A stretch of DNA of 64,000 bases from a virus (taxonomy: Duplodnaviria > Caudoviricetes), in the IMG/VR virus record IMGVR_UViG_2700988850_000001, positions 1-64,000 of that record; one strand, written 5' to 3'. The translations under genes were made by a program, and so were the position numbers. The notes under the pieces were generated by a model. It did no database searches. It saw nothing but the letters and a program-made list of their open reading frames with translations, and was not told the DNA's origin. This document shows, piece after piece, positions 1,608 to 64,000 of this stretch (positions are counted from its first letter, which is position 1; every line of letters starts with the position of its first letter).

Positions 1608-3589
1608 TGTCTCACCCGCTCGGGCCGAACATTGACGCGATCCTCGCAGAGAAGAAGTGGCTTGACCAGCATCCTCAGTTCGAGGAGCGCCCGGCAACCA
1701 TGCGTGAGTTCGTCACTGCCAAGTACCTGAACATCGAGGCCAATGTTCGACCGGGCGTCATGGCTGCGCTCATTGAAATCTTCGGCGACAAGATTGATCC
1801 GAACTGGATCAGCGTGAAGCGCAAGGCCGTCATGACTGGCGGCATCGGCATCGGCAAGACCACGTTCGCTTCGATCGTACTGCCGTACATGGTGCACTGG
1901 GTCTACTGCCTCAAGGACCCGCAGGACTTCTTCGGACTCGCACCCGGATCGAAGATCGCCTTCATGATGATGAGTACGTCAGAGAAGCAGGCGACTGAAG
2001 TTCTGTTCGGCGATGTGAAGGCTCGCGTCGAGAACTCGCCCTGGTTCGAGCGACGCTGCCCGTACGATCCGAAGTTCGAGAAGCAGCTTCGATTCGCGAA
2101 GAAGAACCTGTGGATTCTTCCAGGTGGTTCCGAGGAAACCCGGTTCGAGGGTTACAACATCCTTGGCGGTGTCATTGACGAGGGTGACTCGCACAAGAAA
2201 ACTGCGCGCAAGGACTACGCAGAAGAAGGCTACGATACGATCCACTCCCGTATCGAGTCTCGGTTCATGGATCACAAGGCTGGGAAGTTCAAGGGTATTC
2301 TTATCCTGATCGGCCAGACCAAGAGTGCTACCGGATTCATGCGGCGCATGTACAACGAGTTCATGAAGGAACCCGACGCTGCCGCGATCCGCATGTCGAT
2401 CTGGGAATCTTACGGCTGGCATCGGTACACCGAGAATCCGGACGACGAGAAGAACTACCGCGAGACTGCGCCACGCAAGAGCTTCGTCTACGACGTGATG
2501 CGCAAGGAGATTATCAAGAAGGAAGATGCCGACGCAGCAGGCATCGACTACCAGAGTGGCAATGACAAGTTCATCGAGGTGCCGCTCGCCTACATCGCTG
2601 GCTTTATCAAGAACCCAGTGAAGGCTCTCCGAGACCTTGCAGGTATTCCTCCGGAAGCTTCCGACCCGTTCATCGCCATGACGCATCGTATCACCGAGTG
2701 CCAAGATCGCTGGCATGAGCGCATGGGTGCGAAGGTTCCTGTGAACGACTCGGCGCATGCCCCGAAGTTCGAGCCGTGGTTCAAGGCAACCGATCGAATC
2801 AAGCGCGTCATGCATGTGGATATCGGCGTGTCCGATGAGGGTGACGCCTTGGGCATGGCGATGGGTCACGTCCCGGAGATTGTGGAGATTGACGGGGAGT
2901 GGAAGCCACTGATTGTCTTTGACTTCCTGCTCCGCTGGCACGCAGCCAAGGGTACACAGATCGTGCTCGGTGATGTGCGCCGACTGATCTATCACCTGAA
3001 GAACGACCTGAAGTTCAATCTGACTCACGTCACGACTGACTCATTCCAGTCCACGGACTTCCAGCAGCAGCTTCGTAAGAACAAGTTCAACGTCCAGGAG
3101 ATTTCCGTTGATCGTAAGAAGATGCCCTACGAAGACTTCCGTGACGCTGTATACGATGGGCGAGTTCTATTTCCGCACTACAAGACGCATCTTTACAAAG
3201 GTGATACCGACCTCGTGGATATCGCGTTTCGAGAACTTTCTCAGCTGAGCGACACCGGACAGAAGATCGACCACCCTCCGAAGGGAAGTAAGGATGTTGC
3301 GGACTGCATGGCTGGCGTGGTCCATCACCTTATGAACGACAGCCAGTTCCGGCGCGGCGCTCGCCGGGATCGGCAGGATGGTGTCAATGTTGCACCGGAC
3401 ACTTTCGGTGCTGTTGACCTTTCGAAGATCGTCAGCGGTCACGTCGAGGACGAAGGTTCAAAGGTTATGAACCCCGTGTCGTTCGACAACTTCGATGAGG
3501 GAATGCTGAATCAGTTCGGACCGAACCAGCCGACCAGTCTGTCGGGAAGTCCTTTCGGATTCGATCCTAACGTCCCCCCGATCTGGTGA
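1607..3589 (+). CDS. terL: Terminase large subunit
   Basis: Walker A GGIGIGKT, Walker B GGVIDE, RNase H-like nuclease motifs HVDIG and SKDVAD. Confidence 0.93.
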   Translation: MSHPLGPNIDAILAEKKWLDQHPQFEERPATMREFVTAKYLNIEANVRPGVMAALIEIFGDKIDPNWISVKRKAVMTGGIGIGKTTFASIVLPYMVHWVYCLKDPQDFFGLAPGSKIAFMMMSTSEKQATEVLFGDVKARVENSPWFERRCPYDPKFEKQLRFAKKNLWILPGGSEETRFEGYNILGGVIDEGDSHKKTARKDYAEEGYDTIHSRIESRFMDHKAGKFKGILILIGQTKSATGFMRRMYNEFMKEPDAAAIRMSIWESYGWHRYTENPDDEKNYRETAPRKSFVYDVMRKEIIKKEDADAAGIDYQSGNDKFIEVPLAYIAGFIKNPVKALRDLAGIPPEASDPFIAMTHRITECQDRWHERMGAKVPVNDSAHAPKFEPWFKATDRIKRVMHVDIGVSDEGDALGMAMGHVPEIVEIDGEWKPLIVFDFLLRWHAAKGTQIVLGDVRRLIYHLKNDLKFNLTHVTTDSFQSTDFQQQLRKNKFNVQEISVDRKKMPYEDFRDAVYDGRVLFPHYKTHLYKGDTDLVDIAFRELSQLSDTGQKIDHPPKGSKDVADCMAGVVHHLMNDSQFRRGARRDRQDGVNVAPDTFGAVDLSKIVSGHVEDEGSKVMNPVSFDNFDEGMLNQFGPNQPTSLSGSPFGFDPNVPPIW

Positions 3590-35000: not shown

Positions 35001-36212
35001 TTACCCCTTCAGTGAGACACTTGGATTCGGGTCGCTGTACGTCATGCTGAACACTTCCTTGAGCTGGGCACTCTTCTCGTCGCCAAGCTCATTGGACTTG
35101 ATCAGTGCATCTACCGACGACACGTTGACCTTTGCAATCGTCTGCATCACCTCAGGTCCGACGATAAGACCTACCTGCCTGGTGTCAACCTGACGAGATG
35201 CCTTGCTCTTGTACTCGACCGTGAAGTTGTCAGTCTCCCAGCGGTCGATATCCATTTCCTGAGCGCGTCGGTCGATGATCTTCTTGATCTCACCAGCCGC
35301 ATACTTGTTTGCCTTCTCGGCAGCATTGGCTTCGTAGAGCGCACGCAGCAGATCATCGTCGGTTTGATGCGACCAGGTGCCACCATTCTCTGCGTTCTTC
35401 TTCAGAGTCTTGCAGGTAGCCTTGAGCGGGCAGTACGTGCAACCGTCGTGGATAGTTTCTTCCACGTCCTTTTCATCCATGGCAAGGATGATGTTGGCCG
35501 TCTCCCGTATATCCTTCCAGCTCTCACGGCATTCCTCTACCGTGTACTTGACCTGGACCTCGCCGTACCGGAGCATGTCAGACATGACCCAGATTTCGTC
35601 AGCGTTCGAGTCCTTGAACTGGATGGACGCCGCCACCGCATACATCTTGAACTGAAGCTTTTCCTTCACGTCCGAGTTGCTGAGGTTCTTGCGGTAGCTC
35701 TTGTAATCGACAACGCGGATGATGTGCTTCCAGTTGTCGCCAGCCTGAGGAGTCGGGCTAACTTCGCCCGTGACAACGTTCTCCCAGAACTCGTGGCAGC
35801 AGTCCCAAACGTAATTGTACTTCTTGAGACCGTCGTTCGTCTTGATCATAATGTGCGACTTGAGTTCGGTGGAGATGACCCGAACCCTGGCGAGATTGTC
35901 GCTACGCTTGAACCAGTTCTTCAGCATCGACACGCCGTCCTTGTAGCGTTCGTCGTGGCGATCTGAGAACTTGAACACCTCCTTGAATGCCTCGTGGAAG
36001 AACTCGAGGAGGAGCTTCTGGCTAGGCTCGTGCGTTTTCTTAATGTGCACAGCTTGCACGTACAGCTCGAGAGCCAGGTGGCAGGCGGTACCAGTGTCGG
36101 CAGGTCCGCCATTCTCTGAGCGAGGAACGCGCTTGATGTACTCAGCCCAGTACCTCTTGCTGCACCCAATGAAGGATTCAAACCTCGAGGCACTGATGGA
36201 ATAGAGCTGCAA
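35001..36212 (-). CDS. Cas4/RecB-like PD-(D/E)xK exonuclease
   Basis: SASRF...C, GTACH, VDYKS, QFKMYA and CTYCP...C Fe-S ligands. Confidence 0.88.
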   Translation of the reverse strand: MQLYSISASRFESFIGCSKRYWAEYIKRVPRSENGGPADTGTACHLALELYVQAVHIKKTHEPSQKLLLEFFHEAFKEVFKFSDRHDERYKDGVSMLKNWFKRSDNLARVRVISTELKSHIMIKTNDGLKKYNYVWDCCHEFWENVVTGEVSPTPQAGDNWKHIIRVVDYKSYRKNLSNSDVKEKLQFKMYAVAASIQFKDSNADEIWVMSDMLRYGEVQVKYTVEECRESWKDIRETANIILAMDEKDVEETIHDGCTYCPLKATCKTLKKNAENGGTWSHQTDDDLLRALYEANAAEKANKYAAGEIKKIIDRRAQEMDIDRWETDNFTVEYKSKASRQVDTRQVGLIVGPEVMQTIAKVNVSSVDALIKSNELGDEKSAQLKEVFSMTYSDPNPSVSLKG

Positions 36213-36227
36213 CTTATCTCCTGTGGG

Positions 36228-36428
36228 TCATTGTTTCTTGTTTCGAGTTTGTAGTTTTCCACCCCAGATACCGAAGCGCTCGTCCATTCGAACCTGGTAG
36301 TCGCTGCACTCGTCTCGCACTGGACACGACATGCAAAGCTTCTGCGCCTCTAGCCTGCGCTTAGACTGGCCTCGCTCCGCGAAGAACGCATCTGGGTCTA
36401 ACGTGCCACCGCAGCTAGCGTCTCGCAT
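36228..36428 (-). CDS. whiB: WhiB-family transcription regulator
   Basis: C...DPDAFF...CxxCPV...C...GIWGG. Confidence 0.92.
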   Translation of the reverse strand: MRDASCGGTLDPDAFFAERGQSKRRLEAQKLCMSCPVRDECSDYQVRMDERFGIWGGKLQTRNKKQ

Positions 36429-36445: not shown

Positions 36446-36748
36446 CTAGGAAGTCTGCGTAGAGGGTGCGCTCTCCTTGGGCTTCCCACTGGCCTTCACC
36501 GCAGGTGCAGTCTGAACCGGGTGAGGAAGGCTTCGGCTCTGGGTAACGGGGAGAACAGGGGATACTCCCTCGCTGCTTGACGATGAGTCCGCAGATTCCA
36601 GAGCAGACAAGTCTTTTGGGTTGGTCACCTCTTCCGGTGTGACTGCCTTCGGTCGGCAGTCCATGAAGTTCACGCCCGGAAGGGGGATGCGTTCGTTGTC
36701 GTAGAAGTGGACCAGAGGTTGTGGCTGCGGGTCCATGGGGTCTGACAT
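36446..36748 (-). CDS. Hypothetical low-complexity protein
   Basis: SD GAGGA; fills the gap in the operon. Confidence 0.5.
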   Translation of the reverse strand: MSDPMDPQPQPLVHFYDNERIPLPGVNFMDCRPKAVTPEEVTNPKDLSALESADSSSSSEGVSPVLPVTQSRSLPHPVQTAPAVKASGKPKESAPSTQTS

Positions 36749-36809
36749 GCGGTTTCCTCTCTATGGATCAGGGGTCAAGCATTACGGTACCACGCGGTAC
36801 GCTGAAAAC

Positions 36810-37520
36810 CTACGAGAACAATCCCACATCATCCTGCAATTTGCGGACTGCCTTCTTCCAGTTGTTCTCGTCAAGCTCCATTGCGATCGCATTTCTTCCG
36901 ATCTCCTTGGCTGCCCTGACTAGCGAACCGCTTCCGCCGAATGGATCGACAACCAGGTCTCCCTCGGATGATGAGTGCCGGAGGAGAATCTGTAGAAGTT
37001 CTACTGGTTTTTCGTGGGGATGGATCAGTGTGTTTGCCGGAAGCTGGCCCACACGGATAACGCCAGGGCGCCGTTTGTCAGTACGAATCCTCTTCCCTTT
37101 CTTGAGGAAGAGGATAACCTCGTATGAGGTGCCCCATGAGTTAGTATCCCCCATGCTCGCGCCATTCTTCTCCCAGATGAGCATGTTCTTGTACGTGAAT
37201 CCATGACGACTAAGGTCATGCGCAACGCCGATCCAATGGTCAAGGACATGCCATGAGGTGAAGATGTATAGGTCGCAATCATCCGACGTTTTGGGTAGCA
37301 GAGAATCCATAACCTTGTTAAATACTTCGATTGCCACCTGTGGGTCTGAATCGTTAGCAATCTTCCGCGCATACTCCTTGCCCTTCTCGGTGACCGACTG
37401 ATTGCTGATCGCGTCAATCCCGAAGGGCGGGTCGGTGATCACACAGTTCACCGACCCGCTCGGGAGAATGGCGCACAAGTCAACGGCATCGCCGAGCCAG
37501 ATATCGTGCACCGTTTCCAC
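36810..37520 (-). CDS. DNA N6-adenine/N4-cytosine methyltransferase (beta class)
   Basis: ITDPPF, HPHEKP and DPFGGSGS in beta-class order. Confidence 0.9.
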   Translation of the reverse strand: METVHDIWLGDAVDLCAILPSGSVNCVITDPPFGIDAISNQSVTEKGKEYARKIANDSDPQVAIEVFNKVMDSLLPKTSDDCDLYIFTSWHVLDHWIGVAHDLSRHGFTYKNMLIWEKNGASMGDTNSWGTSYEVILFLKKGKRIRTDKRRPGVIRVGQLPANTLIHPHEKPVELLQILLRHSSSEGDLVVDPFGGSGSLVRAAKEIGRNAIAMELDENNWKKAVRKLQDDVGLFS

Positions 37521-43892: not shown

Positions 43893-44471
43893 TCAGCCCC
43901 AAGCCTGCTTGTGCTTGCATCCGTCACATCCTCCCGTGCCAGGCTCGCGAAGCATGCGATCTTCCAGCGAGAACACGAACATGTGGCAACCCTTGCAGCG
44001 GAAGTATCCCTCGTTGTTCGGGTCCGGCTCGATGTTGTACTTCTCCATGTCACGCTCTTGAGTGCTCGGTGCCTGTAGATTCGACAGGGCTTCACGCGCC
44101 TCGTCGTGCGTGATTTTGTGCTCGCCGTTCTCGTCGTCCATGACGCTCGGTCCGGCAGACCACGGAGTGTCGCCACCATTCCAAGAGCGACCATGCTTGA
44201 ACATCAGGCATCCGATAATGACGCCGGAAAGGTTGTAGCCCACCTCGCCGCTTTCGATAGTCATGGTGACGATATCGTGCAGCGTCTTGAGCTGATCGAC
44301 GTTGAGTCCGTCGATGAAGTTGTGAATGACAGCCTTGGACATTTCATCCTCGAGCTTGTGTCGCTCGGCGTGACGCTCAGCGCCTTCTCCGAAGACCTTC
44401 ATCTGCGCCCGCATGGCTGCCTCGATCATGGCCTGGATTTCTTCGGGCATTCCGTTTTCGTCGTCGCTCAT
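43893..44471 (-). CDS. Hypothetical protein with C-terminal CxxC...CxxC
   Basis: SD AGGAG; zinc-ribbon-like C-terminus. Confidence 0.7.
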   Translation of the reverse strand: MSDDENGMPEEIQAMIEAAMRAQMKVFGEGAERHAERHKLEDEMSKAVIHNFIDGLNVDQLKTLHDIVTMTIESGEVGYNLSGVIIGCLMFKHGRSWNGGDTPWSAGPSVMDDENGEHKITHDEAREALSNLQAPSTQERDMEKYNIEPDPNNEGYFRCKGCHMFVFSLEDRMLREPGTGGCDGCKHKQAWG

Positions 44472-45943: not shown

Positions 45944-46264
45944 CTATCGGGTTTGAACGTGCCGACTCGTATAGAAATTGACCTTACGCTTTCGGCACCA
46001 CCGAATGAGTTCTTCTTCTGTGACCCTCCACTCGGCAGCTTCATTCAGTCCTCGAATGTTAATTGCCCGAAGCATCATGGGGTCTTGCTTCTTCATCTCG
46101 CGTCCGACATAGAATAGAATCTTCTCGCGAAGATGCTTCTCGCTTATGTCGAACATGTAAGCGATCTGATCCACCGTGTACATGAATGTCTTGAGTGGAA
46201 GCTCGATCGCGTCGGCCATGAGGTCGGCCCTCAGATCGGCGATCTGTTTCTTGCTGGCAGGCAT
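45944..46264 (-). CDS. HTH DNA-binding protein (MerR/excisionase-like)
   Basis: YTVDQIAYMFDISE...WRVTEEELIRW; SD AGGAG. Confidence 0.72.
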   Translation of the reverse strand: MPASKKQIADLRADLMADAIELPLKTFMYTVDQIAYMFDISEKHLREKILFYVGREMKKQDPMMLRAINIRGLNEAAEWRVTEEELIRWCRKRKVNFYTSRHVQTR

Positions 46265-46277
46265 TGATTCAACTCCT

Positions 46278-46340
46278 AGAAGAAGCTAAGGGACCGGACA
46301 CAAGTCCGATCCCTTAGCGGCACTCTGACCCACAGAGTGC
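46278..46340 (-). ncRNA. Candidate ~60-nt small RNA or attenuator leader (hairpin plus terminator)
   Basis: GCACUCUG-UGGGU-CAGAGUGC, then a 15-bp stem and UUCUUCU, directly downstream of a promoter. Confidence 0.5.
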
Positions 46341-46344
46341 GGTC

Positions 46345-46373
46345 ATAGTACCATGATCCTCGGAACTTGTCGA
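46345..46373 (-). promoter_or_regulatory. SigA-like promoter with extended -10
   Basis: TCGACA, 17-nt spacer ending TGG, TACTAT. Confidence 0.62.
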
Positions 46374-46382
46374 GCTATGTAC

Positions 46383-46721
46383 TTACAGCATGCCCTGTCT
46401 GCGCATCTCGCTGAGCGTCATAAACTCGTACGGGTTCTTCATGTCCTCCTTACTGGGGAGGGGTAGACGAACCTCGTCGGGACTTCTGACCATGTGAATG
46501 AGCCACTGCTCGGGGGTCATGTTGCCCTTCTCGTTGTTGCAGTTGGCGCAAGCTGGGCGCATGTTTCTGGATTTATTCTTGCCACCCTTCGATAGTGGCA
46601 TCCAGTGGTCCATGGTCTCGCCACCGCCAGTGCAGTAGGTGCCACGCAGGAAGCAGGACGTTCCATACTTGGCGTATACCTTCCCCCGCCTGGCTGGCGT
46701 CACCGACTTTCGTCTGCTCAT
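46383..46721 (-). CDS. HNH endonuclease
   Basis: TMDHWMPLSKGG.N...N...CANCNNEKG. Confidence 0.9.
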   Translation of the reverse strand: MSRRKSVTPARRGKVYAKYGTSCFLRGTYCTGGGETMDHWMPLSKGGKNKSRNMRPACANCNNEKGNMTPEQWLIHMVRSPDEVRLPLPSKEDMKNPYEFMTLSEMRRQGML

Positions 46722-47403: not shown

Positions 47404-47883
47404 TTAGTTAGCCTTTCCTACGAATGCCATTGCCCACTCCACGAACCGCTGAGTCTCGACAGTATTGTCTCCTTGCTGAATCGCAGAGGAGTAGACGTGA
47501 TCCATGCAATACTTGGCGATCCTGCCGTCCTGATACACGTAGATGTAACCGGCGTTCTTCTTGCAGCGCGCCTTCTCGAGTGCCGCATCGCGCTTCGCCT
47601 TCATCATGGCGTCATACTCTTCGTCCCCCTTTCCCTCCTTGTTGTTCTTGTAGGTTGCATACAGAGGCAGGTGGCCGTACTTGATTCCATCGCAGGCGTG
47701 CTTGGTTGGGTAGTCCTTCTGGTGGCCTGGGTAGTAACCCACCTCAACCTTTTTGTGCGGGCTGGGAATCTTGGCAATCCAGGGGCAGGCTGCCAGCATC
47801 CCGGCTCGATCAGTGAGCATGCCCTTGATGTTGAACATTGCCTTGGGTCGTGTTTCTTTCAGCTTGGTCACGTGTTGCTCCAT
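47404..47883 (-). CDS. Hypothetical protein
   Basis: ORF in operon; start uncertain. Confidence 0.6.
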   Translation of the reverse strand: MEQHVTKLKETRPKAMFNIKGMLTDRAGMLAACPWIAKIPSPHKKVEVGYYPGHQKDYPTKHACDGIKYGHLPLYATYKNNKEGKGDEEYDAMMKAKRDAALEKARCKKNAGYIYVYQDGRIAKYCMDHVYSSAIQQGDNTVETQRFVEWAMAFVGKAN

Positions 47884-48164
47884 TCCGGCGTGCCGAACAC
47901 TGCCGCCTCTGTGTACTTGACATTGGCCTTCATCCACTCCGCACCTTTGAGTCGAGCGACAACCCGGTACGTGGTATTGGATAGCCAGATCTTCCGCTTC
48001 TGACCCTTGGCGATCGAGCTGGTACCAAAGGAACAGTTGCCGATGTTGATGTAGTAAGTCGTCAGCGCCTGGATGATTTCCAGCGCATCCTTCTTGTTCA
48101 CCTCAACGTAGCAGTTGTACGCTTTGCTGAGGTACTTGTCATACGGATTCGGAATCCAGGGCAT
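47868..48164 (-). CDS. Hypothetical protein
   Basis: TAATG coupling at 48164 (MPWIPNPY...). Confidence 0.6.
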   Translation of the reverse strand: MPWIPNPYDKYLSKAYNCYVEVNKKDALEIIQALTTYYINIGNCSFGTSSIAKGQKRKIWLSNTTYRVVARLKGAEWMKANVKYTEAAVFGTPEWSNT

Positions 48165-48463
48165 TACAGAAGTCCCATCGCTCGGAGCCTGAGTTGTCCA
48201 CGTTCCTCTGCGGTCAAGAAGCCCAGGCCGGGGATCAGGTAGTCTCTCGGGTACAGGTAGACATTCTTCTTGATGCTCCCGTCCCTCAGGATGTGCTGCG
48301 CCTTCCGGGTCGGGCATCGCATGCACACTAGAACCTGAATGAATCCACCACGGGGACGCTCAACCGTGTGGTACTTCCATGCGTGCATGAGTGCACGGCA
48401 CGTCACGTACTTGTCGGGAATGTCATTGATCGTCGGCTTCTTCGGCCTGGACTTCTTGCTCAT
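48164..48463 (-). CDS. Small Cys/His-containing protein
   Basis: CR...HAW...CxxC; overlaps the recombinase stop. Confidence 0.65.
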   Translation of the reverse strand: MSKKSRPKKPTINDIPDKYVTCRALMHAWKYHTVERPRGGFIQVLVCMRCPTRKAQHILRDGSIKKNVYLYPRDYLIPGLGFLTAEERGQLRLRAMGLL

Positions 48464-49269
48464 AGCTCTACACCTTCTCGCATCTGTTCGAGAGCAACAG
48501 CCGTGTAAGTTTCTGTGGTCTTGGAGCTTGCATGACCCAGGAACTCTTGCACTACACGAATGTTGTTTGTTTTGTTGTGCATTGCAGTAGCTACCGTGGC
48601 CCGCCCATCATGAGTGGCGGAATCGCCGAGACCGGCCTTACCTGCAATGTCCTTCCAGCGACGCCGTGCCGTCCGATCAGACAGCGGCACAAGCATTTCG
48701 CCGGGTCCAGCCTCGCTAATGCGGTCACGAAGGTCTTCCCAAGCCTGGCTCGAGATGGGAACCTCGCGAGTCTTATCCCCCTTGCCGATCACCGTGATCA
48801 CGCGCTCGTCAGTGTCGATGCTATAAGTTGAGAGTGATCGCACCTCACTGATGCGGAGACCGCACCTACCTAGCAGTGTTACAAGTGCTCGGTCGGTAGG
48901 CGTCTCGCACACGCTGACCATCTTGGCAACGGCGTCCATGCCTCCGCTAAGCGGATGGGGTTTCGGTCTCGGAGGTCGGGGCGGGGAGTAGTCCTCCAAG
49001 ATCGTCCCCATCCCAGCCCACTTCCCGTAGGTCTTGAACGTCGCCAGTCTCCTGATTACTGTTCTCGGCGCTGAGTCCTTCCTTGTCGTCGTCAAGTACT
49101 TCGAGGCTGCCTCCTCGAAGGTTGATGACGTGTCGCCTGACGTACGAATCCAGGCTAGCAACCCACTCAGATCGCTTCCGTAGGAACGGGTAGTGTGTGA
49201 ACTTCGTCCCCTCTCGGACAAGTATTCGAGGAACCTGGCGATAGAGTCGATGGTAAGAGTCGTCTCCAT
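48460..49269 (-). CDS. XerC/D-like tyrosine recombinase
   Basis: Catalytic set R(GLRISE), K(GKGDK), HxxR(HDGR), H(LGH), Y(TETY) intact; start uncertain. Confidence 0.9.
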   Translation of the reverse strand: METTLTIDSIARFLEYLSERGRSSHTTRSYGSDLSGLLAWIRTSGDTSSTFEEAASKYLTTTRKDSAPRTVIRRLATFKTYGKWAGMGTILEDYSPPRPPRPKPHPLSGGMDAVAKMVSVCETPTDRALVTLLGRCGLRISEVRSLSTYSIDTDERVITVIGKGDKTREVPISSQAWEDLRDRISEAGPGEMLVPLSDRTARRRWKDIAGKAGLGDSATHDGRATVATAMHNKTNNIRVVQEFLGHASSKTTETYTAVALEQMREGVEL

Positions 49270-49567
49270 TTGCGAACGCCTCCTGGGCGATTCGATCTCT
49301 AGCCTCCACGATGGACTGCGCTTGAGCAAAGGAGATATCCCAAAACTCCTTGGTCGCCGCCAGTTCATCACGGGTCATGTCGGATAGCTTGGCCGATACA
49401 ACCCTGTTCTGTGCTCGCATTCTCACGACCACATCGTGTCCGGCCTCGCCACTGAAGTATCTGTTCTCCTCATTCTTATTGATGAACAAGGTGAAGCTGA
49501 TGTGGTTCACATCCAGAAGCGCCCTGGTGTAGTCGGCAAGCTTTGCTCTGATCTTTCTCTGTGCCAT
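48947..49567 (-). CDS. Hypothetical protein overlapping the recombinase 5' end
   Basis: Starts 2 nt after the upstream stop; only ORF covering 49372-49567. Confidence 0.55.
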   Translation of the reverse strand: MAQRKIRAKLADYTRALLDVNHISFTLFINKNEENRYFSGEAGHDVVVRMRAQNRVVSAKLSDMTRDELAATKEFWDISFAQAQSIVEARDRIAQEAFANGDDSYHRLYRQVPRILVREGTKFTHYPFLRKRSEWVASLDSYVRRHVINLRGGSLEVLDDDKEGLSAENSNQETGDVQDLREVGWDGDDLGGLLPAPTSETETPSA

Positions 49568-51935: not shown

Positions 51936-51962
51936 GTTTTCTCCTGGTACTAGTCTGACTTC

Positions 51963-51991
51963 AAAGAGAAGCGGCACCGTAGTGCCGCTCT
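51963..51991 (-). terminator. Intrinsic terminator
   Basis: AGCGGCAC-TACG-GTGCCGCT followed by TCTCTTT on the minus strand. Confidence 0.7.
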
Positions 51992-52000
51992 CCTTGTGGA

Positions 52001-52522
52001 TCAGAAGCCGGGGTCGTCCTCGTCGTACTCGGTGCCCTCGATATCCTCGGACTCGTCCTCAAGCTCGAGGTCTTCCGCCTCCGGATCAGCGCCCGCCTCG
52101 GCGATAGCCTTCTCACGACGGGACACGTCGTGGAAGTGGCCCAGGTCCAGGCCCTCGTGGTCGATTTCGTTGTGAAGATCGAGGGCGTCCTCGCTCGACA
52201 GCTCGTTGATATCGGCCACGCGGTACGCGTGATTGTCGAGAAGGTGGCGCTTCACATTCTCGGCAGTGACCGGGTTCAGTCGCTTGGCCCTGAGCTTCGC
52301 AGGCTTGCGCTCCGGAGCCTTCCAGTCAGCGATGCGATCGGAGGTAACCAGCTCGGTAGCCGACTTACCCTTCTCGCGCAGGATGTACATGCCGCCGTTT
52401 GCCTCGACGACCTGGTACTCCTTGGCCTCGCCTTCATTGCCCTCGTCGTCCCGAAGAACGATGGTGCAAATCTTGCCCTTGAAATCCTCGAGGTCGTTGA
52501 GGATGCTCTCTGCCGTGGTCAT
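52001..52522 (-). CDS. Hypothetical protein with acidic C-terminal tail
   Basis: Strong SD GGAGGAG; His-rich core; ends DEDDPGF. Confidence 0.75.
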   Translation of the reverse strand: MTTAESILNDLEDFKGKICTIVLRDDEGNEGEAKEYQVVEANGGMYILREKGKSATELVTSDRIADWKAPERKPAKLRAKRLNPVTAENVKRHLLDNHAYRVADINELSSEDALDLHNEIDHEGLDLGHFHDVSRREKAIAEAGADPEAEDLELEDESEDIEGTEYDEDDPGF

Positions 52523-52605
52523 TTTAATCTCCTCCGTGGGTCCTTGGGTGGTGCCCGTTACCGTTACGCTATCACGATAGCGAGCACCACCGCAACCCAA
52601 TGCAA

Positions 52606-54552: not shown

Positions 54553-56160
54553 CTAGTGGTTGCTCTTGTTAACTTCGGACAGGATCATCTCGCGTGCCTC
54601 AGGCTCGAGATAATCCGCAGCCGCCAGCCGGAAGGCTTCGGGCATGGAGAACAGTCGCAGTGCTCGTGCCACCTTGATGTTCTGTCGGATACCCCACGTC
54701 ACCGGAAGGGCACCGTCCTCGCCGAGCTTGCGCAGCTCGGCAGAGATCTTCATGAGCGTGGACAGCTCGGAGGAAGGTAGGTCGAACCCGTCCAGCTTGC
54801 ACCGCTTGAGAATGATTTCCTTCTCAAGCTTCTCCGTCGGGTAGTCCACGAAGATGTGCATGAGTCGGGAGCCGTCAGCATCGGAGATAACTTCCGCGCC
54901 AATGTTGCGGGCATCCCACGCCGGGTTCATTGCCATGCCCAGGTAGCTGAACTTGTGCCGGTCTACGACCTGACCCTCGTTAGCATCAAGGACTAGCTGC
55001 TTGGCGTTGTCTGTCATGGGTCGGATGAACTGCCAGACTTCCGGGCCACCGACGTTCGGCTCGTCCAGCACCTGAACACAAGGCTTGGCCCACGCTCGAG
55101 GGATGCGGCCCTCCACGAAGTAGGTACCCTTGCCTTCTTCGTAATGCGTCTTGCCTTGCAGGTCGTCCAGCTCAGTTGACTTGGTGATACTCACCCGCTC
55201 GAACGGGAGACCCATGAGCCAGGCGAGCCAGCGGAACGCCTCAGTCTTACCCGTGCCAGCCACGCCGTGCAGTGCGGGAGTCTCACCCAGGTCCCAGATC
55301 GCACTGATCTTGTAGAGCAGATTGTCGTGGTCCTTGTACAGCTCAGGATGGTTCTCGTCCCCGGTCTGAGGAATCTTTGCCAGCTCGTCCGGGTCGTTGA
55401 TGAAGAAGTCCCGGTCGAAGATGGGGAGCATTACACTCTTGGTGTGGCTGTCGTTCCAGATTTCACGCCACGCCTTGATGCCACAATCCTTGTCCTCCTG
55501 TGTCACAGGCTTGTCTGTGCTGTAGTCTTGCGGGTCCTGGACGGGTGCCTCAGGCTGCGGAACATTCGCCCCGAACTTGTCGAGCTTAGGGAATGCAGGC
55601 TGCAATTCAGGGAACAGGATCGCGTCACCGAGAAGGTTGTCGATGTGCTCGTCAATGTTCGGGGCGTGGATCATCTCGCCTTCGGTGCACGCCTCGGCAA
55701 CCTTGCCAGTCTTGGCTTGGGAAACTAGGATGCCACGCTTGGCGCAGTACCCATAGTTCATGCCGAACTCTTTCTGCACCACCTTGGAGTCAACGTGGAA
55801 GTGGCAGCTCCGGCACGAGTGGGGCGCACCCCACTGCTCGCGACTTGACTGCTGCCCCTCGGGGGTCGGCATGGTCGGCATGGGAAGTGCGACGGCGAGC
55901 GACGGCGAATCCTTTGCCGAGCGAGGGCGCGGCTTGCCGTGCGAGTCACAGGTGCGAGCGACCTGCTCCTTGATCTTTGAGTTCACCTTCGGATCACCCT
56001 CGGGTGAACCGAGGAGCTTGCCCTTCAGGGGGCAGGTGTCAGCCTTGAGAATGGTTCCGTAGGCAGACACCTGCCCCTCGAAGCTTAGAGCCGCGAGCAT
56101 GCTCGGACAGGTTGCACACGACTTAGCCGGTGCGGTGGTCTCCTCTTGTACCTCAGTCAT
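54553..56160 (-). CDS. MoxR/CobS-like AAA+ ATPase with Cys-rich N-terminus
   Basis: GVAGTGKT, VLDEPN, AMNP, SRLM...DYP, WGIR; adjacent to the vWA gene. Confidence 0.9.
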   Translation of the reverse strand: MTEVQEETTAPAKSCATCPSMLAALSFEGQVSAYGTILKADTCPLKGKLLGSPEGDPKVNSKIKEQVARTCDSHGKPRPRSAKDSPSLAVALPMPTMPTPEGQQSSREQWGAPHSCRSCHFHVDSKVVQKEFGMNYGYCAKRGILVSQAKTGKVAEACTEGEMIHAPNIDEHIDNLLGDAILFPELQPAFPKLDKFGANVPQPEAPVQDPQDYSTDKPVTQEDKDCGIKAWREIWNDSHTKSVMLPIFDRDFFINDPDELAKIPQTGDENHPELYKDHDNLLYKISAIWDLGETPALHGVAGTGKTEAFRWLAWLMGLPFERVSITKSTELDDLQGKTHYEEGKGTYFVEGRIPRAWAKPCVQVLDEPNVGGPEVWQFIRPMTDNAKQLVLDANEGQVVDRHKFSYLGMAMNPAWDARNIGAEVISDADGSRLMHIFVDYPTEKLEKEIILKRCKLDGFDLPSSELSTLMKISAELRKLGEDGALPVTWGIRQNIKVARALRLFSMPEAFRLAAADYLEPEAREMILSEVNKSNH

Positions 56161-56198
56161 TATTCCTCATTCCCCTGTGGGTCAGGTCGCTGGTTCTA

Positions 56199-57319: not shown

Positions 57320-57655
57320 TTAGTTGCTCTTTCCTACGGGGAGGGTTACCTTGACCATCTCGGGGCCGCGAATCCACAGCTCCGAGATGACTTCATCTTC
57401 GTTGTGCACGGTGATCACGGACATGCTCTCCATGTCCTTCGTGGTCAGGCGACCGTACTCTTCCTGCCACTTCTCTACGGCAAGTCGATTGCCTTCACGT
57501 GCTGCGAACTGGCGCTTGGTCTCGCCGTCCTTCAGGTCGTTGCTCGTCACGTTCTCGAGCTTGATCCGGACGCTCGAAGTTCTTGATTCGGCACCCAGGC
57601 TGAACCGCATGGGTGACGTAAGCGTTACTGTTGCGTGGTCTGGTTCCTTCTTCAT
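57320..57655 (-). CDS. Hypothetical protein
   Basis: ORF in operon, likely start MKKEPD. Confidence 0.6.
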   Translation of the reverse strand: MKKEPDHATVTLTSPMRFSLGAESRTSSVRIKLENVTSNDLKDGETKRQFAAREGNRLAVEKWQEEYGRLTTKDMESMSVITVHNEDEVISELWIRGPEMVKVTLPVGKSN

Positions 57656-58118
57656 TCTTTCCCCTAAGTATGTCCAGGTAACGTCCGAGGTGTATAGCAT
57701 CTTCCAGTTTTATCCTTTGCCCGTGCCCGAAGTTGATCAGCGTCTTCGGTTTGAGCGAGTATCCGGTGACCTGGTGGATGCCCTTGGATATCGTCAGCCA
57801 GCTGAGTTGGCGCTCAGCTTTGACTGATATCATCCTGTCCCGCAGCGCATCTTCTATCGGGAACCTGTCGTCCGATTCCATCTTCACGGATTCGTCGTAC
57901 ATGAACTGTACCTTGAACTCGTTGGCTGAAACCTTCTTGATGTATGACCTGAATCCGTTGCGCCTCGCCCACCTTGCGGCAGATGTGCGGCACTGATTGT
58001 AGTTCGGCAGTCCAGTGTCCTTGACCCAGACCCGGACGACCGTGCCGTTCGTAGCGGCTATCTTGTGCCAGATTCTGGTGGACTTGCGTGCCTGCTTCGG
58101 TGGATCACCCAGGTGCAT
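57495..58118 (-). CDS. Hypothetical protein with possible XRE-type HTH
   Basis: LSWLTISKGI...SLKPKTLINFGHG; C-terminus overlaps the next gene. Confidence 0.55.
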   Translation of the reverse strand: MHLGDPPKQARKSTRIWHKIAATNGTVVRVWVKDTGLPNYNQCRTSAARWARRNGFRSYIKKVSANEFKVQFMYDESVKMESDDRFPIEDALRDRMISVKAERQLSWLTISKGIHQVTGYSLKPKTLINFGHGQRIKLEDAIHLGRYLDILRGKNEEGTRPRNSNAYVTHAVQPGCRIKNFERPDQARERDEQRPEGRRDQAPVRST

Positions 58119-58135
58119 CTCTCACCTGCCGTCGC

Positions 58136-58426
58136 TCATGCTCGGTCTCCCGTGGATCGACCGGGATCGGAAGCCTTCTCAGGCCCGCCGGTCTTGTTGG
58201 TCGTCGCCGTCTCGCCAGTGTTGACGTTGGTCAGTCGTGGCGAATCGAAGGTGTACTCCTTGAGCGCGCCTTCGACCATGGTCTCGATCGTGACCCGCTC
58301 GCACCCGTGCTGGTAGAAGTGGATCGAAGTTGCCACCCCACGAATGCCGGTCTGCTTGTCGAGGTACCGCTCACCGAGAATGATATCGGTGTCGTAGTTG
58401 ACCTTGCTCTTCTTCTTCAGTCCCAT
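58136..58426 (-). CDS. Hypothetical protein (SH3-like)
   Basis: SD GAGGAG; LG..Y.D..TG..G...GC motif. Confidence 0.65.
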   Translation of the reverse strand: MGLKKKSKVNYDTDIILGERYLDKQTGIRGVATSIHFYQHGCERVTIETMVEGALKEYTFDSPRLTNVNTGETATTNKTGGPEKASDPGRSTGDRA

Positions 58427-58427
58427 T

Positions 58428-58718
58428 TCAGTTCTCCTCCACGTACAGCACTGCAATGACTTCGGTGGTCGTGTGTGTGATCAGCCATGCCACCACATCC
58501 CACTCGATCTTCCCGTAACGATCGCCGTACTCCCTGACTGCACGCTTGCGCGCCATGTCCTCAGCCTCGATCCGAAGCTTGTTCAGGTCACCCTGAGGAA
58601 AGGACGGCAGCCTGACCGTGACCGTGACGATCGGGTTGTCCTTCATGAACTTCCGAAGCCAGTTCCGGGAGTTCATGCGGGCATCGACATGCCTGATCTT
58701 GGGTCCGCGTGCAGCCAT
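58428..58718 (-). CDS. Hypothetical protein
   Basis: SD AAGGA; fits operon packing. Confidence 0.6.
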   Translation of the reverse strand: MAARGPKIRHVDARMNSRNWLRKFMKDNPIVTVTVRLPSFPQGDLNKLRIEAEDMARKRAVREYGDRYGKIEWDVVAWLITHTTTEVIAVLYVEEN

Positions 58719-58842
58719 TGAAGTATCCTTCTCATATGTGCCCGCCCCATCTACCGGGGAGGGCGAAGCGTGTGCCCGCGCAGCGTGGACGACGGGAGCA
58801 ATCCGCCGTCGTCCACGCCTCGCCGGGTGGATGGTCTGTGGG

Positions 58843-58998
58843 TCAGGGCTGGTCCAGCCTGTTTACGTCGTGATCGTAGTACGTATTGTCTACGCCAAGT
58901 TGTTCCTGCGCCTTGTCGTGAGCTTCGTCGGGATCGTGGGCCTCGACAACGGCCCGCCTGTAATCACGGAAGTAGAAGATCACCTCGTACTGTGCCAT
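58843..58998 (-). CDS. Small hypothetical protein
   Basis: SD GAGG; MAQYEV...VEAHDPDEAHDKA. Confidence 0.6.
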   Translation of the reverse strand: MAQYEVIFYFRDYRRAVVEAHDPDEAHDKAQEQLGVDNTYYDHDVNRLDQP

Positions 58999-59467: not shown

Positions 59468-60180
59468 GGCATGTACACGCCCTTCATATCATTTACCCAA
59501 TTGATGTGGGCAATGTTCCGCTTCTCGCAGTCCGGCCCGATGCCATACCAGATGGACCTTGCATCTGTGAGCTGCTTCCCGCAGTTGCCGCAGCATCCCT
59601 TCTCCGTGGCGAAGTCGAACGCTGCCTGGTACGGATTGGCTACGATCAAGCCGATCAGTTCCGACAACCGTTCTCCGGCAACCATGCGATTGTTCTGGAA
59701 CACTAGCTCGCCCGACTTCTTGTAGATCAGGCGATTCGTTCGCACATCCCCGTGCTGTGTCTTGACAACCAGGTGGTCCTTGTAGGTGCCACGCTTCGGT
59801 CGAGTCACATGGAAGAACACGTACTGCTTCGGCCCGTCGGTCACGTCCGGTGTCACTGCATACCTACCATCCCGGATCAGGTTCACGATCTGGAAGGTGA
59901 CGATTGCTTTCTTCGGGGAGTTCGGGTCCATGTCCGGCTGCTTCTTGAGGTAGGTGATGATGCGGGATGCATGCGCTCGAGACTCGGCAGGTTTCATCTG
60001 CCCCTTGTATCCCTTGCGCTTGATTAGGTCCTCGATGTACTGCAACTGTGCAGCAGTCGGCAGCAAGTCCGACATGGTTACCCGGCGTGATGCCTGGGCG
60101 ACGTTACTTCTACCCGAACAGTTCCGAACACCGCTCGTGTCTTGATGGTATCCCTTGCAGTGATAGCAACGAATCGCCAT
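59464..60180 (-). CDS. DUF6011-like zinc-finger protein
   Basis: CGNCGKQLTD..S...GIGPDC; PTAAQLQYI short motif; SD GGAGG. Confidence 0.75.
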   Translation of the reverse strand: MAIRCYHCKGYHQDTSGVRNCSGRSNVAQASRRVTMSDLLPTAAQLQYIEDLIKRKGYKGQMKPAESRAHASRIITYLKKQPDMDPNSPKKAIVTFQIVNLIRDGRYAVTPDVTDGPKQYVFFHVTRPKRGTYKDHLVVKTQHGDVRTNRLIYKKSGELVFQNNRMVAGERLSELIGLIVANPYQAAFDFATEKGCCGNCGKQLTDARSIWYGIGPDCEKRNIAHINWVNDMKGVYMP

Positions 60181-60330: not shown

Positions 60331-60681
60331 CTACGGGAGGATACCGGCGATCTGGTACTGCGCCTTCTCGACAGCCTCTTCGACACTGGACGCCTTGACC
60401 GTGACCATGAGCGGCTGCTCGCGGTGCGTCTTGGTGTCGTGCGAGAAGTGCGTGTTCTCGATCTCACGGGGGGAGTGGTAGCCCGACGCGTGAGCTTCCC
60501 CGCGCTTCTGATCCTCCGTCTTGGTGATCGCCTGGTAGGTGCGCTGGACGCTGACGCTCACCTCGTAGGAATCTTCCACCACGTCACCGACCTGGGGAAC
60601 GGTGCCCAGTACGACTGCCGGTCGAACGTCCGACTTCTTGTCGGTCGATGCACCGTTGGAAGATGCTGCTGCACGTGCCAT
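60331..60681 (-). CDS. Hypothetical protein
   Basis: SD AGGAG; strongly biased codons. Confidence 0.7.
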   Translation of the reverse strand: MARAAASSNGASTDKKSDVRPAVVLGTVPQVGDVVEDSYEVSVSVQRTYQAITKTEDQKRGEAHASGYHSPREIENTHFSHDTKTHREQPLMVTVKASSVEEAVEKAQYQIAGILP

Positions 60682-60851
60682 GTCTTATTCTCCTGTGGGT
60701 CTGGTACTAGTGTGAGTGTTTAGAGAAGCCGGGTGCATTGCGCATCGAGGCGTTTCTATGCACCCGGCTTCTCGTTGAAGGGCCACCTGATCCGGTCGAT
60801 AGCCTGACGTTTAGTCCCGTCAGGTTTGCACCGAATGCTGCGCTGCCCTTG

Positions 60852-61122: not shown

Positions 61123-62052
61123 CTAGGCCTTGTACGCGCCCTTGATACCCTGCGCGTTCTCGCCCGGCTGGATGCCCTCAACGGTGCAGTTGGTCGGGTT
61201 GCCCTTGCTGTCCTTGGGGAACAGGCGAGCCGAGATTGCACCAGCCGACGGGCTGTCCTCGCCGTACTCCTCCGACTTGGTGTTCTTGATCTCGCTCACC
61301 GTGAGGAAGGTGCCCGACTCGAGACCGTTGAACGCGTTCAGGATGTGCGCCGCCACGTCACGCCGGGTGCCCTGGAAGGGCTGCCCTGCCGGACGACCCG
61401 GCTTGCGCGGACCCTTGCCTGTCGCGATCTTGACCGCGTGCTTGACCACGATCGAGACCTCAGGCTCGTCGCCGCGAGTCTCCGGGTCAGCCTGCGACCA
61501 GTCCAGGTACGCCTTGGCAGCGTCGATGGTGTCGTCGTCGCTGATCTCGGAAGCCCAGTCGCCCAGTCCCTCGGGAACCAGGGGACCTTCCGCCAGGTCC
61601 ACCGCGAGACGGAGAGCCTGGACGCGATCGGCGAAGACCTTCTCCTGGCTGACGGTCGGCTTGGCAGCGCCGCCACCCGAAGATGCACGCGGCGTGGTCT
61701 CGAGAACCGCACCGTTAATCAGGTTCCAGGCAACAGCCTGGGTGATCGGAGTGTCCGTCTCGGGAGAGAGCGCGTCCTTCATCTGGTCAGCGATGAAGTT
61801 CTTCGCCTTGTTCTTGAACTTGGCGCCGCCCTCGATATCACGGTACGCCTCCTTGACCGGCTGAAGCTGCGCCGGAGCGAGCGAACCCGTCTCGTGGTCA
61901 GCGTCGGCAGCGACAGTCTTGGCGACGTTCTGGAACTCTTCGACGAGAGCTTCCAGGCGCTCCTGCTCGGCAGCCTGCTCGGCCTGCTCCTGCTCGGTCA
62001 GCTCGACTTCGGCAGCTTCGGGAGCGTCGATGGTTGCAGTGTTCTCAGACAT
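61123..62052 (-). CDS. Hypothetical protein (309 aa), probably highly expressed
   Basis: SD AAGGAG, own promoter, strong codon bias. Confidence 0.8.
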   Translation of the reverse strand: MSENTATIDAPEAAEVELTEQEQAEQAAEQERLEALVEEFQNVAKTVAADADHETGSLAPAQLQPVKEAYRDIEGGAKFKNKAKNFIADQMKDALSPETDTPITQAVAWNLINGAVLETTPRASSGGGAAKPTVSQEKVFADRVQALRLAVDLAEGPLVPEGLGDWASEISDDDTIDAAKAYLDWSQADPETRGDEPEVSIVVKHAVKIATGKGPRKPGRPAGQPFQGTRRDVAAHILNAFNGLESGTFLTVSEIKNTKSEEYGEDSPSAGAISARLFPKDSKGNPTNCTVEGIQPGENAQGIKGAYKA

Positions 62053-62111
62053 TTCGTTCTCCTTGTGGGTCATTGTGCTGGGGCCGCATCCCCGGTTTGT
62101 TTGATGCCTCC

Positions 62112-62405: not shown

Positions 62406-62644
62406 CGGCTGCGCTTCCGGTATGCCGGATTGTGCATGCGCTCTACCATTTCGAGATGCTCTCGCCATGCCTTGCTGTCCTGCTCATTCCAGAATGTATT
62501 CCAGGCGCACACTGCCGAGACTATTCCGGCGAAGATTGGCAGGAAGCCTATGGCAAATCCCATGATGACAAGCCACGCGCCTACGCCGATCCCGACCGCT
62601 GCGCCTACTGCGCACAGTGTCGTGATGACTTTGTATATCATCAC
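62399..62644 (-). CDS. Small membrane protein
   Basis: Two hydrophobic helices; GTGA overlap. Confidence 0.6.
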   Translation of the reverse strand: MMIYKVITTLCAVGAAVGIGVGAWLVIMGFAIGFLPIFAGIVSAVCAWNTFWNEQDSKAWREHLEMVERMHNPAYRKRSRW

Positions 62645-63351: not shown

Positions 63352-63359
63352 GTCTAGCC

Positions 63360-63512
63360 TCACTCTCTGGTGGTCGTGCCGCCATGCTGGTTGCACGGGG
63401 ACTTCATGCTGCCGTACTTGTTAGAGAATCCGCCATACTCAGGTGCGTAATACTGAATCTCTACCACGCACCCGCATTCAAGTTTGACGTCATCTTCCCA
63501 GTCGTCGGACAT
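63360..63512 (-). CDS. 50-aa Cys/His protein (not in ORF track)
   Basis: MSDDWEDDVKLECGC...PCNQH; first gene after a promoter. Confidence 0.55.
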   Translation of the reverse strand: MSDDWEDDVKLECGCVVEIQYYAPEYGGFSNKYGSMKSPCNQHGGTTTRE

Positions 63513-63538
63513 TTGTTCCCGTCCTTTGCTCTGGTACT

Positions 63539-63567
63539 AGTCTATCATAAGGCATTCAGAATGCCAA
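63539..63567 (-). promoter_or_regulatory. SigA-like promoter with overlapping palindrome
   Basis: TTGGCA, 17-nt spacer, TAGACT, then AGTACCAG; GGCATTC-A-GAATGCC at 63551-63565. Confidence 0.7.
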
Positions 63568-63611
63568 CCCTATCCCCGGATATACCGGGGATAAGATTCG
63601 AACTCTGACTG

Positions 63612-63839
63612 CTAGCGTCGGGTGTAGATGCGCTGAGTTGCGCGACGCTGGTTCTTCCGAGCACGGGCTACCTTCCACGCTTGGTCCAGCGTGGCCCCCT
63701 CGGTGCAGTAGATGACGATGAACTCGCTCTCGTCCACCTGAGACCGGCGCTCGCCCTGCTGCTGTAGGTACTCGACCGCCCGGTTACCGGCCTTCGTGCC
63801 GATGAACTTGTCAGATGCCTTCTCGATTGCGACAGACAT
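63612..63839 (-). CDS. Hypothetical protein
   Basis: SD AGGAGG. Confidence 0.65.
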   Translation of the reverse strand: MSVAIEKASDKFIGTKAGNRAVEYLQQQGERRSQVDESEFIVIYCTEGATLDQAWKVARARKNQRRATQRIYTRR

Positions 63840-64000
63840 ATCTTGCCTCCTATTCTGGGATGCGACCGACCAGGCAGTATGCCCACCCGATTACGTCGCC
63901 GTTGCTCGGGTCGATGATAGACCAAGACTCGCCGGTATGATCCGTGCCGCCATGGACGGTACGGTACCCGTCGAAGTCCTCACGCAGCATGGTCATGAGG

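Follow-up and report, generated by a model that had tools for sequence, protein, structure and literature searches.

The start-associated sequences (SAS) of Cluster K mycobacteriophages were described in 2011 (Pope et al. 2011, PMC3203893), and papers from 2024 and 2025 still call their role unknown (PMC11373665, PMC12699233). By layout, not by mechanism, they are the closest known analogue of a leader tag, GACCCACAG, that recurs in the phage genome considered here. Both the SAS and the tag are private, asymmetric short repeats of the non-structural arm, both stand in one orientation a few nucleotides before the starts of unrelated genes, and both have a single copy of opposite orientation that lies away from gene starts (as far as the account in PMC3203893 goes; here on the + strand at 46327). 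The 13-bp SAS consensus, GGGATAGGAGCCC, differs in sequence from the tag, which is an analogue and not a member of that group; moreover, the SAS contains the Shine-Dalgarno (SD) sequence whereas the tag adjoins it, and SAS precede 11-19 genes as against the 5-6 tagged genes found here. The reverse copies differ in their surroundings as well, the one reported here lying within a compact promoter-to-terminator unit, whereas for that of phage Anaya no adjoining promoter or terminator was found. In Anaya, the reverse SAS (L032 44871-44883; record 59870-59882) falls in the 10-nt apical loop of a hairpin; the surrounding non-coding gap is 385 bp long, lies at gp96-gp97 and follows a canonical terminator. 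A matching stretch is present in 138 Mycobacterium phage records, where it is mostly unannotated, and the hairpin is kept in all five of the phages that were aligned. Covariation of SAS and loop was not seen among these five: in two of them, Amohnition and TClif, the loop is changed by a deletion while the SAS stays GGGATAGGAG (16 and 14 forward copies, respectively, and 0 reverse copies).

By mechanism, the closest described systems would be the c4 antisense RNA of P1/P7 and the sar RNA of P22, as presented in a review (PMC12197685). The likeness, which for the present locus is proposed from sequence, is that of a short phage RNA whose loop-exposed sequence pairs around a ribosome-binding site and blocks translation. 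The c4 and sar RNAs face one target (ant) within an immunity circuit, whereas here one seed would face at least five dispersed leaders, and there is no sequence or structural homology between those RNAs and the unit.

A further comparison is with the stoperators of Cluster A phages, which, to the extent that PMC9283540 sets them out, resemble the tag in that they are short and asymmetric, lie in promoter regions or in small gaps between genes, and are oriented according to the direction of transcription; stoperators act on DNA via a monomeric immunity repressor, are present in more than 20 copies of 13 bp, and are inactivated by reversal. The present genome differs in that it has six exact copies of the tag, that the tag tracks the SD sequence, and that no repressor was found, an integrase-family gene being present at 48460-49371. 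Attenuated or antiterminated operons, of which lambda PR'-tR' is an example, classically place a promoter and then a terminator ahead of the gene, and in leaders of the lambda PR'-tR'/6S RNA type a constitutive promoter with a terminator within tens of nucleotides yields a short RNA unless the terminator is overcome. The unit is like these leaders in the order of promoter, terminator and gene; nothing in it was recognised as an antiterminator, a pause element or an alternative structure, and a leader of this type would leave the complementarity to other leaders unexplained.

Genome and gene neighbourhood

The window, that is, the whole stretch of DNA that was analysed, comprises the first 64 kb of the 75,772-bp viral record IMGVR_UViG_2700988850_000001, with rightward structural genes up to about 34.5 kb and leftward genes from 35 kb on. 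Among named phages, Rhodococcus phage Perlina is the closest, with a nucleotide identity of about 70-75% over the parts that can be aligned, and a common architecture is found in some 100 Gordonia and Tsukamurella phages at protein identities of 33-46%. The unit fills the 118-nt intergenic stretch between a gene for an HNH endonuclease and a gene for a 106-aa helix-turn-helix (HTH) protein (Table 1). The orthologue of the HTH protein in Perlina is 66% identical and annotated as 'excisionase'; the protein itself belongs to phrog_6746, matches HTH_17 with an E value of 0.0046, which is below the cut-off, and has no sequence match among solved structures. Perlina has an unrelated 161-aa gene in the place of the HNH gene. 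Elsewhere in the leftward arm, a full-length tyrosine-recombinase gene (48460-49371; Phage_integrase and SAM-like N domain) lies near the middle, and a WhiB-like gene (36228-36428) stands directly before the tagged exonuclease leader. A Com-like protein has been reported to be encoded by Perlina in the paper on that phage; a 70-aa Com-like candidate in the genome under study had no Pfam match.

Table 1. Positions in the window of the parts of the unit, of the genes beside it and of the copies of the leader tag
Feature	Position	Strand	Details
-35 TCGACA	46373-46368	-	read from sequence
-10 TACTAT	46350-46345	-	TG upstream; 17-nt spacer to -35
Hairpin 1	46340-46320	-	GCACUCUG-UGGGU-CAGAGUGC; 8-bp stem; predicted transcript 5' end
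Mirror copy, 13 nt	46325-46337	-	CTCTGTGGGTCAG, reverse complement of CTGACCCACAGAG; within hairpin 1
Hairpin 2	46318-46285; tail 46284-46278	-	15 pairs, loop UUGU, tail UUCUUCU; intrinsic-terminator-like
HTH gene	45944-46264	-	106 aa; ATG at 46264; SD AGGAG 46277-46273; downstream of unit
HNH endonuclease gene	46383-46721	- (leftward)	upstream neighbour of unit
Exact tag leader	56175-56183	-	before AAA-ATPase gene 54553-56160; 15 nt past TTGACA-17-TACTAT
Exact tag leader GACCCACAGGAG	60693-60701	-	before 116-aa gene 60331-60681
Exact tag leader GACCCACAGGAG	36221-36229	-	before PD-(D/E)XK exonuclease gene 35001-36212, TTG start
One-mismatch leader GACCCACGG, then AGGAG	52534-52542	-	before gene 52001-52522
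One-mismatch leader GACCCACAA, then GGAG	62063-62071	-	before gene 61123-62052
Two-mismatch leader GATCCATAG	36761-36769	-	context CTGATCCATAGAG; before gene 36446-36748
Exact sense copy, non-leader	58836-58844	-	overlaps stop codon TGA; 14-bp hairpin follows
Exact sense copy, non-leader	37338	-	inside methyltransferase coding sequence

The promoter-to-terminator unit

Read on the - strand, the locus consists of TCGACA, 17 nt, TACTAT, 7 nt, hairpin 1, one C, hairpin 2, UUCUUCU, AGGAG and ATG, and this small-RNA-like anatomy of promoter, 5' seed and terminator is real. The preliminary description had claimed the promoter TCGACA-17-TACTAT, which direct reading finds on the - strand, and a second hairpin with a 15-bp stem and UUCUUCU, which agrees with both the sequence and the fold. 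It had given the first hairpin as CUCUG-UGGGU-CAGAG; the hairpin and its loop stand, with a stem of 8 bp rather than 5. The minimum-energy fold contains both hairpins and reaches -43.4 kcal/mol (z = -6.2), a stability that none of 200 shuffled sequences equalled.

The candidate promoter scores 9/12 in the promoter scan, and between 40 and 52 kb five promoter matches were found against 4.5 expected, so that a match by itself is at chance level; between 52 and 64 kb the count of promoter-type sites is eight against 3.7 expected, four strong ones standing before genes. Similar hexamers are used by other promoters of the right arm, including that of the ATPase gene (56227-56199), which has the -10 TACTAT too. 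At the other end of the unit, the tail of hairpin 2 is identical to that of a terminator-like hairpin at 44529-44500. Since several intergenic hairpins in this phage directly precede the SD sequence of the next gene, hairpin 2 may be leaky, or may be a stability element.

There is no conserved open reading frame in the unit: the sole 10-codon frame starts inside the -10 hexamer and has no counterpart in Perlina, and none of the listed frames of at least 30 aa lies on the - strand within 46265-46382. No Rfam family was matched at gathering scores across the whole window. Read on the + strand, the locus presents a hairpin, 8 nt, and then GACCCACAG.

A tag adjoining Shine-Dalgarno sequences

Six exact copies of the tag occur in the window against 0.86 expected, a number reached by none of 100 shuffles, and the count for the whole 75,772-bp genome is likewise six, all but that at 46327 (+ strand) lying on the - strand; the copy in the unit had been singled out as the only reversed one, which is correct for exact copies. 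With up to one mismatch allowed the window holds 15 sites against 20.6 expected, a raw count not above chance, and the 19 such sites of the whole genome are mostly inside coding sequence. A first control based on open reading frames was too permissive to be informative, and it was superseded by an SD-anchored test, whose strict rule asks for an SD core 0-3 nt from the last base of the tag, followed by a start codon and an open reading frame. Two of the six exact sites and four of the 19 one-mismatch sites qualify, whereas 400 permuted 9-mers gave a mean of 0.005 and none of them reached two. The association of the tag with the SD sequence is thus statistically solid, and the tag is a real start-associated element.

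The tag stands directly 5' of the SD sequence of at least five right-arm genes, the tagged set comprising the AAA-ATPase gene that heads an ATPase/CobT-like pair, the PD-(D/E)XK exonuclease gene and four genes without an assigned function. In four of five leaders the sense copy is 0-1 nt from the SD sequence, whereas its spacing to a promoter ranges from 7 to 46 nt or the promoter is absent. The sequence had been described as a leader motif; of the five exact sense copies, three are leaders (36221, 56175 and 60693) and those at 37338 and 58836 are not. Similarly, a copy that had been quoted near 52000 (51994, GATCCACAA) marks a gene end before a terminator-like hairpin and is not a leader, and the second of its changes is not a wobble. 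A gene that ends with TGA inside a tag-like sequence and is followed by a strong hairpin is encountered twice on the - strand (58782-58846 and 51960-52003; CTGACCCACAGA, CTGATCCACAAGGAG), which could be chance, or the tag could have a further role at 3' ends.

Other repeats are found in the right arm. About 8-10 early genes on the - strand share a second, far more repetitive cassette in front of them (window 63353-64000 and L031, 63.3-69.3 kb), its parts being CTGAGCGCGTTTGC, a 10-14-bp hairpin, a near-consensus promoter GTTGACATTCTCAG..TAGACT and a shared leader CCACCGAGAGTGAGGCTAGAnATG, and a related repeat, TTGACATTCTGA, is present in Perlina in 9-16 copies. The box CTAGTACC(A) follows the -10-like hexamers TAGACT, TAGTCT, CAGACT and CACACT (window 63540, 60710, 60219 and 51953, all on the - strand); two of these boxes have good -35 sites and two come after terminator-like hairpins. 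Phage GTE7 has seven copies of CTAGTACCA on the gene strand of its right arm, and CTAGTCC occurs in Perlina.

Conservation in Perlina and in a close variant

The unit is also located upstream of the orthologous HTH gene in Perlina, even though the gene upstream of the unit differs, and reads there TGGACA-17-TAGGAT, 9 nt, CTCTGTGGGTCAG, a 17-bp hairpin, UUUUAUCUU, GGAGG and ATG. The 13-nt mirror copy is identical at 13 of 13 positions and forms the longest invariant block of an otherwise diverged intergenic alignment; the key bases of the -35 hexamer and the TA..AT of the -10 hexamer are kept, and differences fall in the spacers and at the top of hairpin 2. Minimum-energy and centroid folds give two independent hairpins in both phages. 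In the RNAalifold consensus of the two, hairpin 1 retains a 5-bp core, CUCUG/CAGRG, with the loop UGGGU, and hairpin 2 is retained via three compensatory pairs. The UGGGU seed had been said to be exposed in the loop, and so it is in the fold computed here; the minimum-energy fold of Perlina pairs part of that loop, so that UGGGU is not left open.

In a close variant represented by DNA contigs from runs X1/X2, the unit differs only at 46340, the outermost base of the stem, and by a 1-nt deletion at 46268, the 13-nt seed being unchanged. This variant carries replacements or deletions of 220-770 nt relative to the window at 47851-48171, 57655-58428 and 62416-62639, and outside those three places the pieces that were compared show about 1-4% base differences. 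The contigs from runs X1, X2, X4 and X5 are all DNA, and a search for RNA runs that contain the locus returned none.

Perlina has copies of the tag before starts at 69613, 58666, 54044 and 50355, and the tag-bearing gene sets of the two phages overlap only partly. In both of the orthologous leader alignments that were made (the ATPase leader at 56175 and the leader at 52534, whose Perlina counterpart is GACCCACAC) the tag is an island of identity. At the unit itself, it is the primary sequence that selection maintains. Tag and mirror copy are identical in the only two lineages found with the unit, the present phage and Perlina, and an RNA pairing and a shared DNA site therefore predict the same thing.

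Searches for further relatives

Scans of viral, metagenome and genome contigs with the HTH protein or its alignment revealed no further relatives, nor were any found with the neighbouring 226-aa protein or with two DNA patterns as queries. Three matches were set aside, one being a chance match in an unrelated high-GC contig (L029), one an unrelated IF-2-like gene (L030), and one spanning 13 residues only (L023). A scan based on the ATPase returned 14 loci, all at or below 46% identity except one (L060) with 59% over part of the protein. The record of that locus (G001) contains one leader-like copy after TTGACC-18-TACCAT and another copy inside a long open reading frame; the 19.8 kb of it that were examined hold no reverse copy of the tag and no HTH homologue.

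An overlap between the HTH gene and the gene upstream of it is seen in Diabla, TIN2, TIN4, GTE7 and MrWormie, and GACCCACAG occurs 0-1 times in each of these phages; CCCACAG is found before a start once each in Diabla and MrWormie. In the latter two phages (Diabla L045 18743-18807 and MrWormie L027 ~3040-3092) a terminator-like hairpin is followed by GTGCCCACAGGA and then by the SD sequence of the orthologue of the gene at window 43893-44471, from which it follows that a CCCACAGGA leader is present once in each of these distant relatives. The unit resembles this hairpin-leader module inverted.

A borderline covariance match (E 0.043) in BirksAndSocks consists of CTGTGTCAGGGTG and a hairpin, and was rejected as a counterpart, the complement CTGACACAG not being a leader tag in that phage, where it has 17 sites against 28 for a control, none of them at an SD sequence. 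The region concerned (L051 15180-15274, about 62.08-62.17 kb, genes 82/81) reads TTGCGA-17-TACACT, CTGTGTCAGGGTG and a 16-bp hairpin on ACTAAG/CTTAG. Taken as sequence evidence, this look-alike would support neither side of the argument about the unit.

Predicted pairing between the mirror copy and the leaders

The preliminary description had put the possible pairing at 9-13 bp, and indeed 10-13 contiguous pairs, with G-U allowed, can be drawn between the 13-mer and five leaders, those before the starts at 56160, 36748, 52522, 36212 and 60681. The context of the ATPase leader at 56175, CTGACCCACAGGG, forms 13 pairs with the mirror copy, one of them G-U, and the degenerate leader at 36761 also forms 13, two of them G-U. 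Among the 192 SD-anchored starts of the genome under study, five pair at least 11 contiguous bases with the 13-mer (four tag leaders and a G-U-rich match at 65762), as against a mean of 0.63 starts for shuffled 13-mers, none of 200 of which reached five, a test that largely restates the repetition of the tag. The same test in Perlina is weak, with three of 158 starts at 11 bases or more, one of them a tag leader, and one of 200 shuffles reaching three.

Other measures are less favourable to pairing. A whole-genome scan of duplex energies placed the leaders at -24 to -29 kcal/mol, where they overlap the genomic background and do not stand out, and half of the 13-mer is locked in the 8-bp stem of hairpin 1 in the present phage. 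It had further been argued that deviations in the leader copies keep the pairing as wobbles. By our own count four of 13 deviations preserve pairing against about 26% (7/27) expected, which is chance level. The three internal deviations of the tag (positions 3-7) are all C-to-U.

A possible antisense RNA and the alternatives

The best reading of the unit, which we put forward tentatively and on the strength of its sequence, is that it encodes an antisense RNA of about 60 nt that pairs with the tagged leaders. From the anatomy of the locus, its conservation and the association of the tag with the SD sequence we infer transcription, termination, pairing and an effect of that pairing. Such an RNA would be short and non-coding, about 60 nt long here and about 70 nt in Perlina, starting some 7 nt past the -10 hexamer and ending at hairpin 2. 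Its 5' hairpin would offer CUCUGUGGGUCAG, which is complementary to the private tag, (CU)GACCCACAG(RG), found next to the SD sequence of at least 5-6 genes. Pairing would begin at the UGGGU loop, grow to 10-13 bp and reach the first G of the SD sequence, and the resulting duplex would either block binding of the 30S subunit or expose the mRNA to decay, so that the tagged set would be turned down together. The HTH gene would be supplied by read-through of an imperfect terminator. This antisense interpretation is plausible, and it is strengthened by conservation, though unproven.

One would expect a very similar pattern if the asymmetric sequence of 9-13 bp were bound as double-stranded DNA by a protein of the phage, the HTH protein encoded next to it being the simplest candidate, with the reversed copy as an autoregulatory operator and the sense copies as operators or stoperator-like blocks to elongation. 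An asymmetric site bound by that protein would explain both orientations, and a shared site is expected from HTH proteins that are 66% identical. The reversed copy begins 7-9 nt past the -10 hexamer in both phages, which corresponds to roughly +3 to +20 relative to the HTH promoter, and what is kept there is primary sequence rather than the outer stem. Several sense copies are promoter-proximal as well: that at 56175 is 15 nt past TACTAT, the ATPase copy of Perlina is 14 nt past TAACAT, and the Perlina copy at 58666 is 7 nt past TAGACT. The precedent would be the Cluster A stoperators, which PMC9283540 describes as asymmetric, biased in orientation and located in short gaps between genes; however, according to the same account, reversal of the L5 site abolishes the elongation block. 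The sense copies, moreover, hold a fixed place relative to the SD sequence and not relative to promoters, they number about eight at most as against more than 20 for stoperators, and no repressor was found among the genes. HTH homologues in Gordonia and Tsukamurella phages occur without the upstream unit and without the repeated tag. On balance, we consider an operator of this kind rather unlikely.

A role confined to the locus itself has to be weighed too, and we would place it, likewise, on the unlikely side. The promoter, the structured 5' leader and a leaky terminator would then form an attenuator controlling how strongly the HTH operon is expressed, and the mirror copy would be a site for a cis-acting factor or a conserved leftover of an inverted module of terminator plus tagged leader, with no targets in trans. 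The order of promoter, terminator and gene is, as in lambda PR'-tR', the classic one for an attenuated or antiterminated operon, yet neither the minimum-energy nor the centroid folds of either phage contain an alternative antiterminator structure. A standard module of this genome (60693, 51953, 44529) has a tag or SD sequence within about 5-25 nt of a preceding terminator-like hairpin, the + strand reading of the locus looks exactly like such a hairpin-tag module, and the covariance model of the unit matches, in antisense, the leader of Diabla gene 65, which is composed of a hairpin and GTGCCCACAGGAAGG (E 0.0037). Given this antisense match and the module-like + strand reading, the unit may have arisen by inversion of a hairpin-tag-leader module. 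A neutral relic, however, should not remain identical at 13 of 13 positions while its flanks diverged, which argues that the mirror was maintained for a reason after any inversion, and no conserved + strand open reading frame lies behind a 'leader' reading. It could also be that the hairpins merely end the upstream operon, that the promoter match is spurious and that the reverse 9-mer arose by chance, about 0.4 exact copies per strand being expected and promoter-like matches occurring at background frequency. Such a coincidence is quite improbable. The motif to which the mirror is complementary was derived separately, from the leaders, the key bases of the -35 and -10 hexamers are conserved, and the identical 13-mer stands at the equivalent place in Perlina; it is this conservation that makes pure chance unlikely. 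As to fit, a DNA operator, or a cis leader or relic, accounts for the observations equally well as an antisense RNA.

Implications

A conserved promoter-to-terminator unit with an exact mirror of the tag offers a concrete and cheap hypothesis for start-associated sequences. Cultures exist of Perlina as well as of its host, Rhodococcus qingshengii S10, and for Cluster K phages both genetics and RNA-seq are available. Should the HTH protein bind the site instead, the locus would represent a small network similar to that of stoperators in a new lineage of phages, a more ordinary outcome. Were the RNA real, the phage would possess an antisense regulator with several targets among its own genes, and a small RNA encoded by a phage would be a rarity in an actinobacterial host. 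In its widest form the idea, about which we are more hesitant, is that one small phage RNA could be the missing trans factor for a start-associated tag, pairing with at least five mRNAs and controlling a set of genes at translation, that the same logic may hold for the reverse SAS of Cluster K, and that anti-leader RNAs may constitute a general, undescribed layer of phage gene timing. If true, this would explain why Cluster K phages carry a single reverse SAS within a conserved hairpin.
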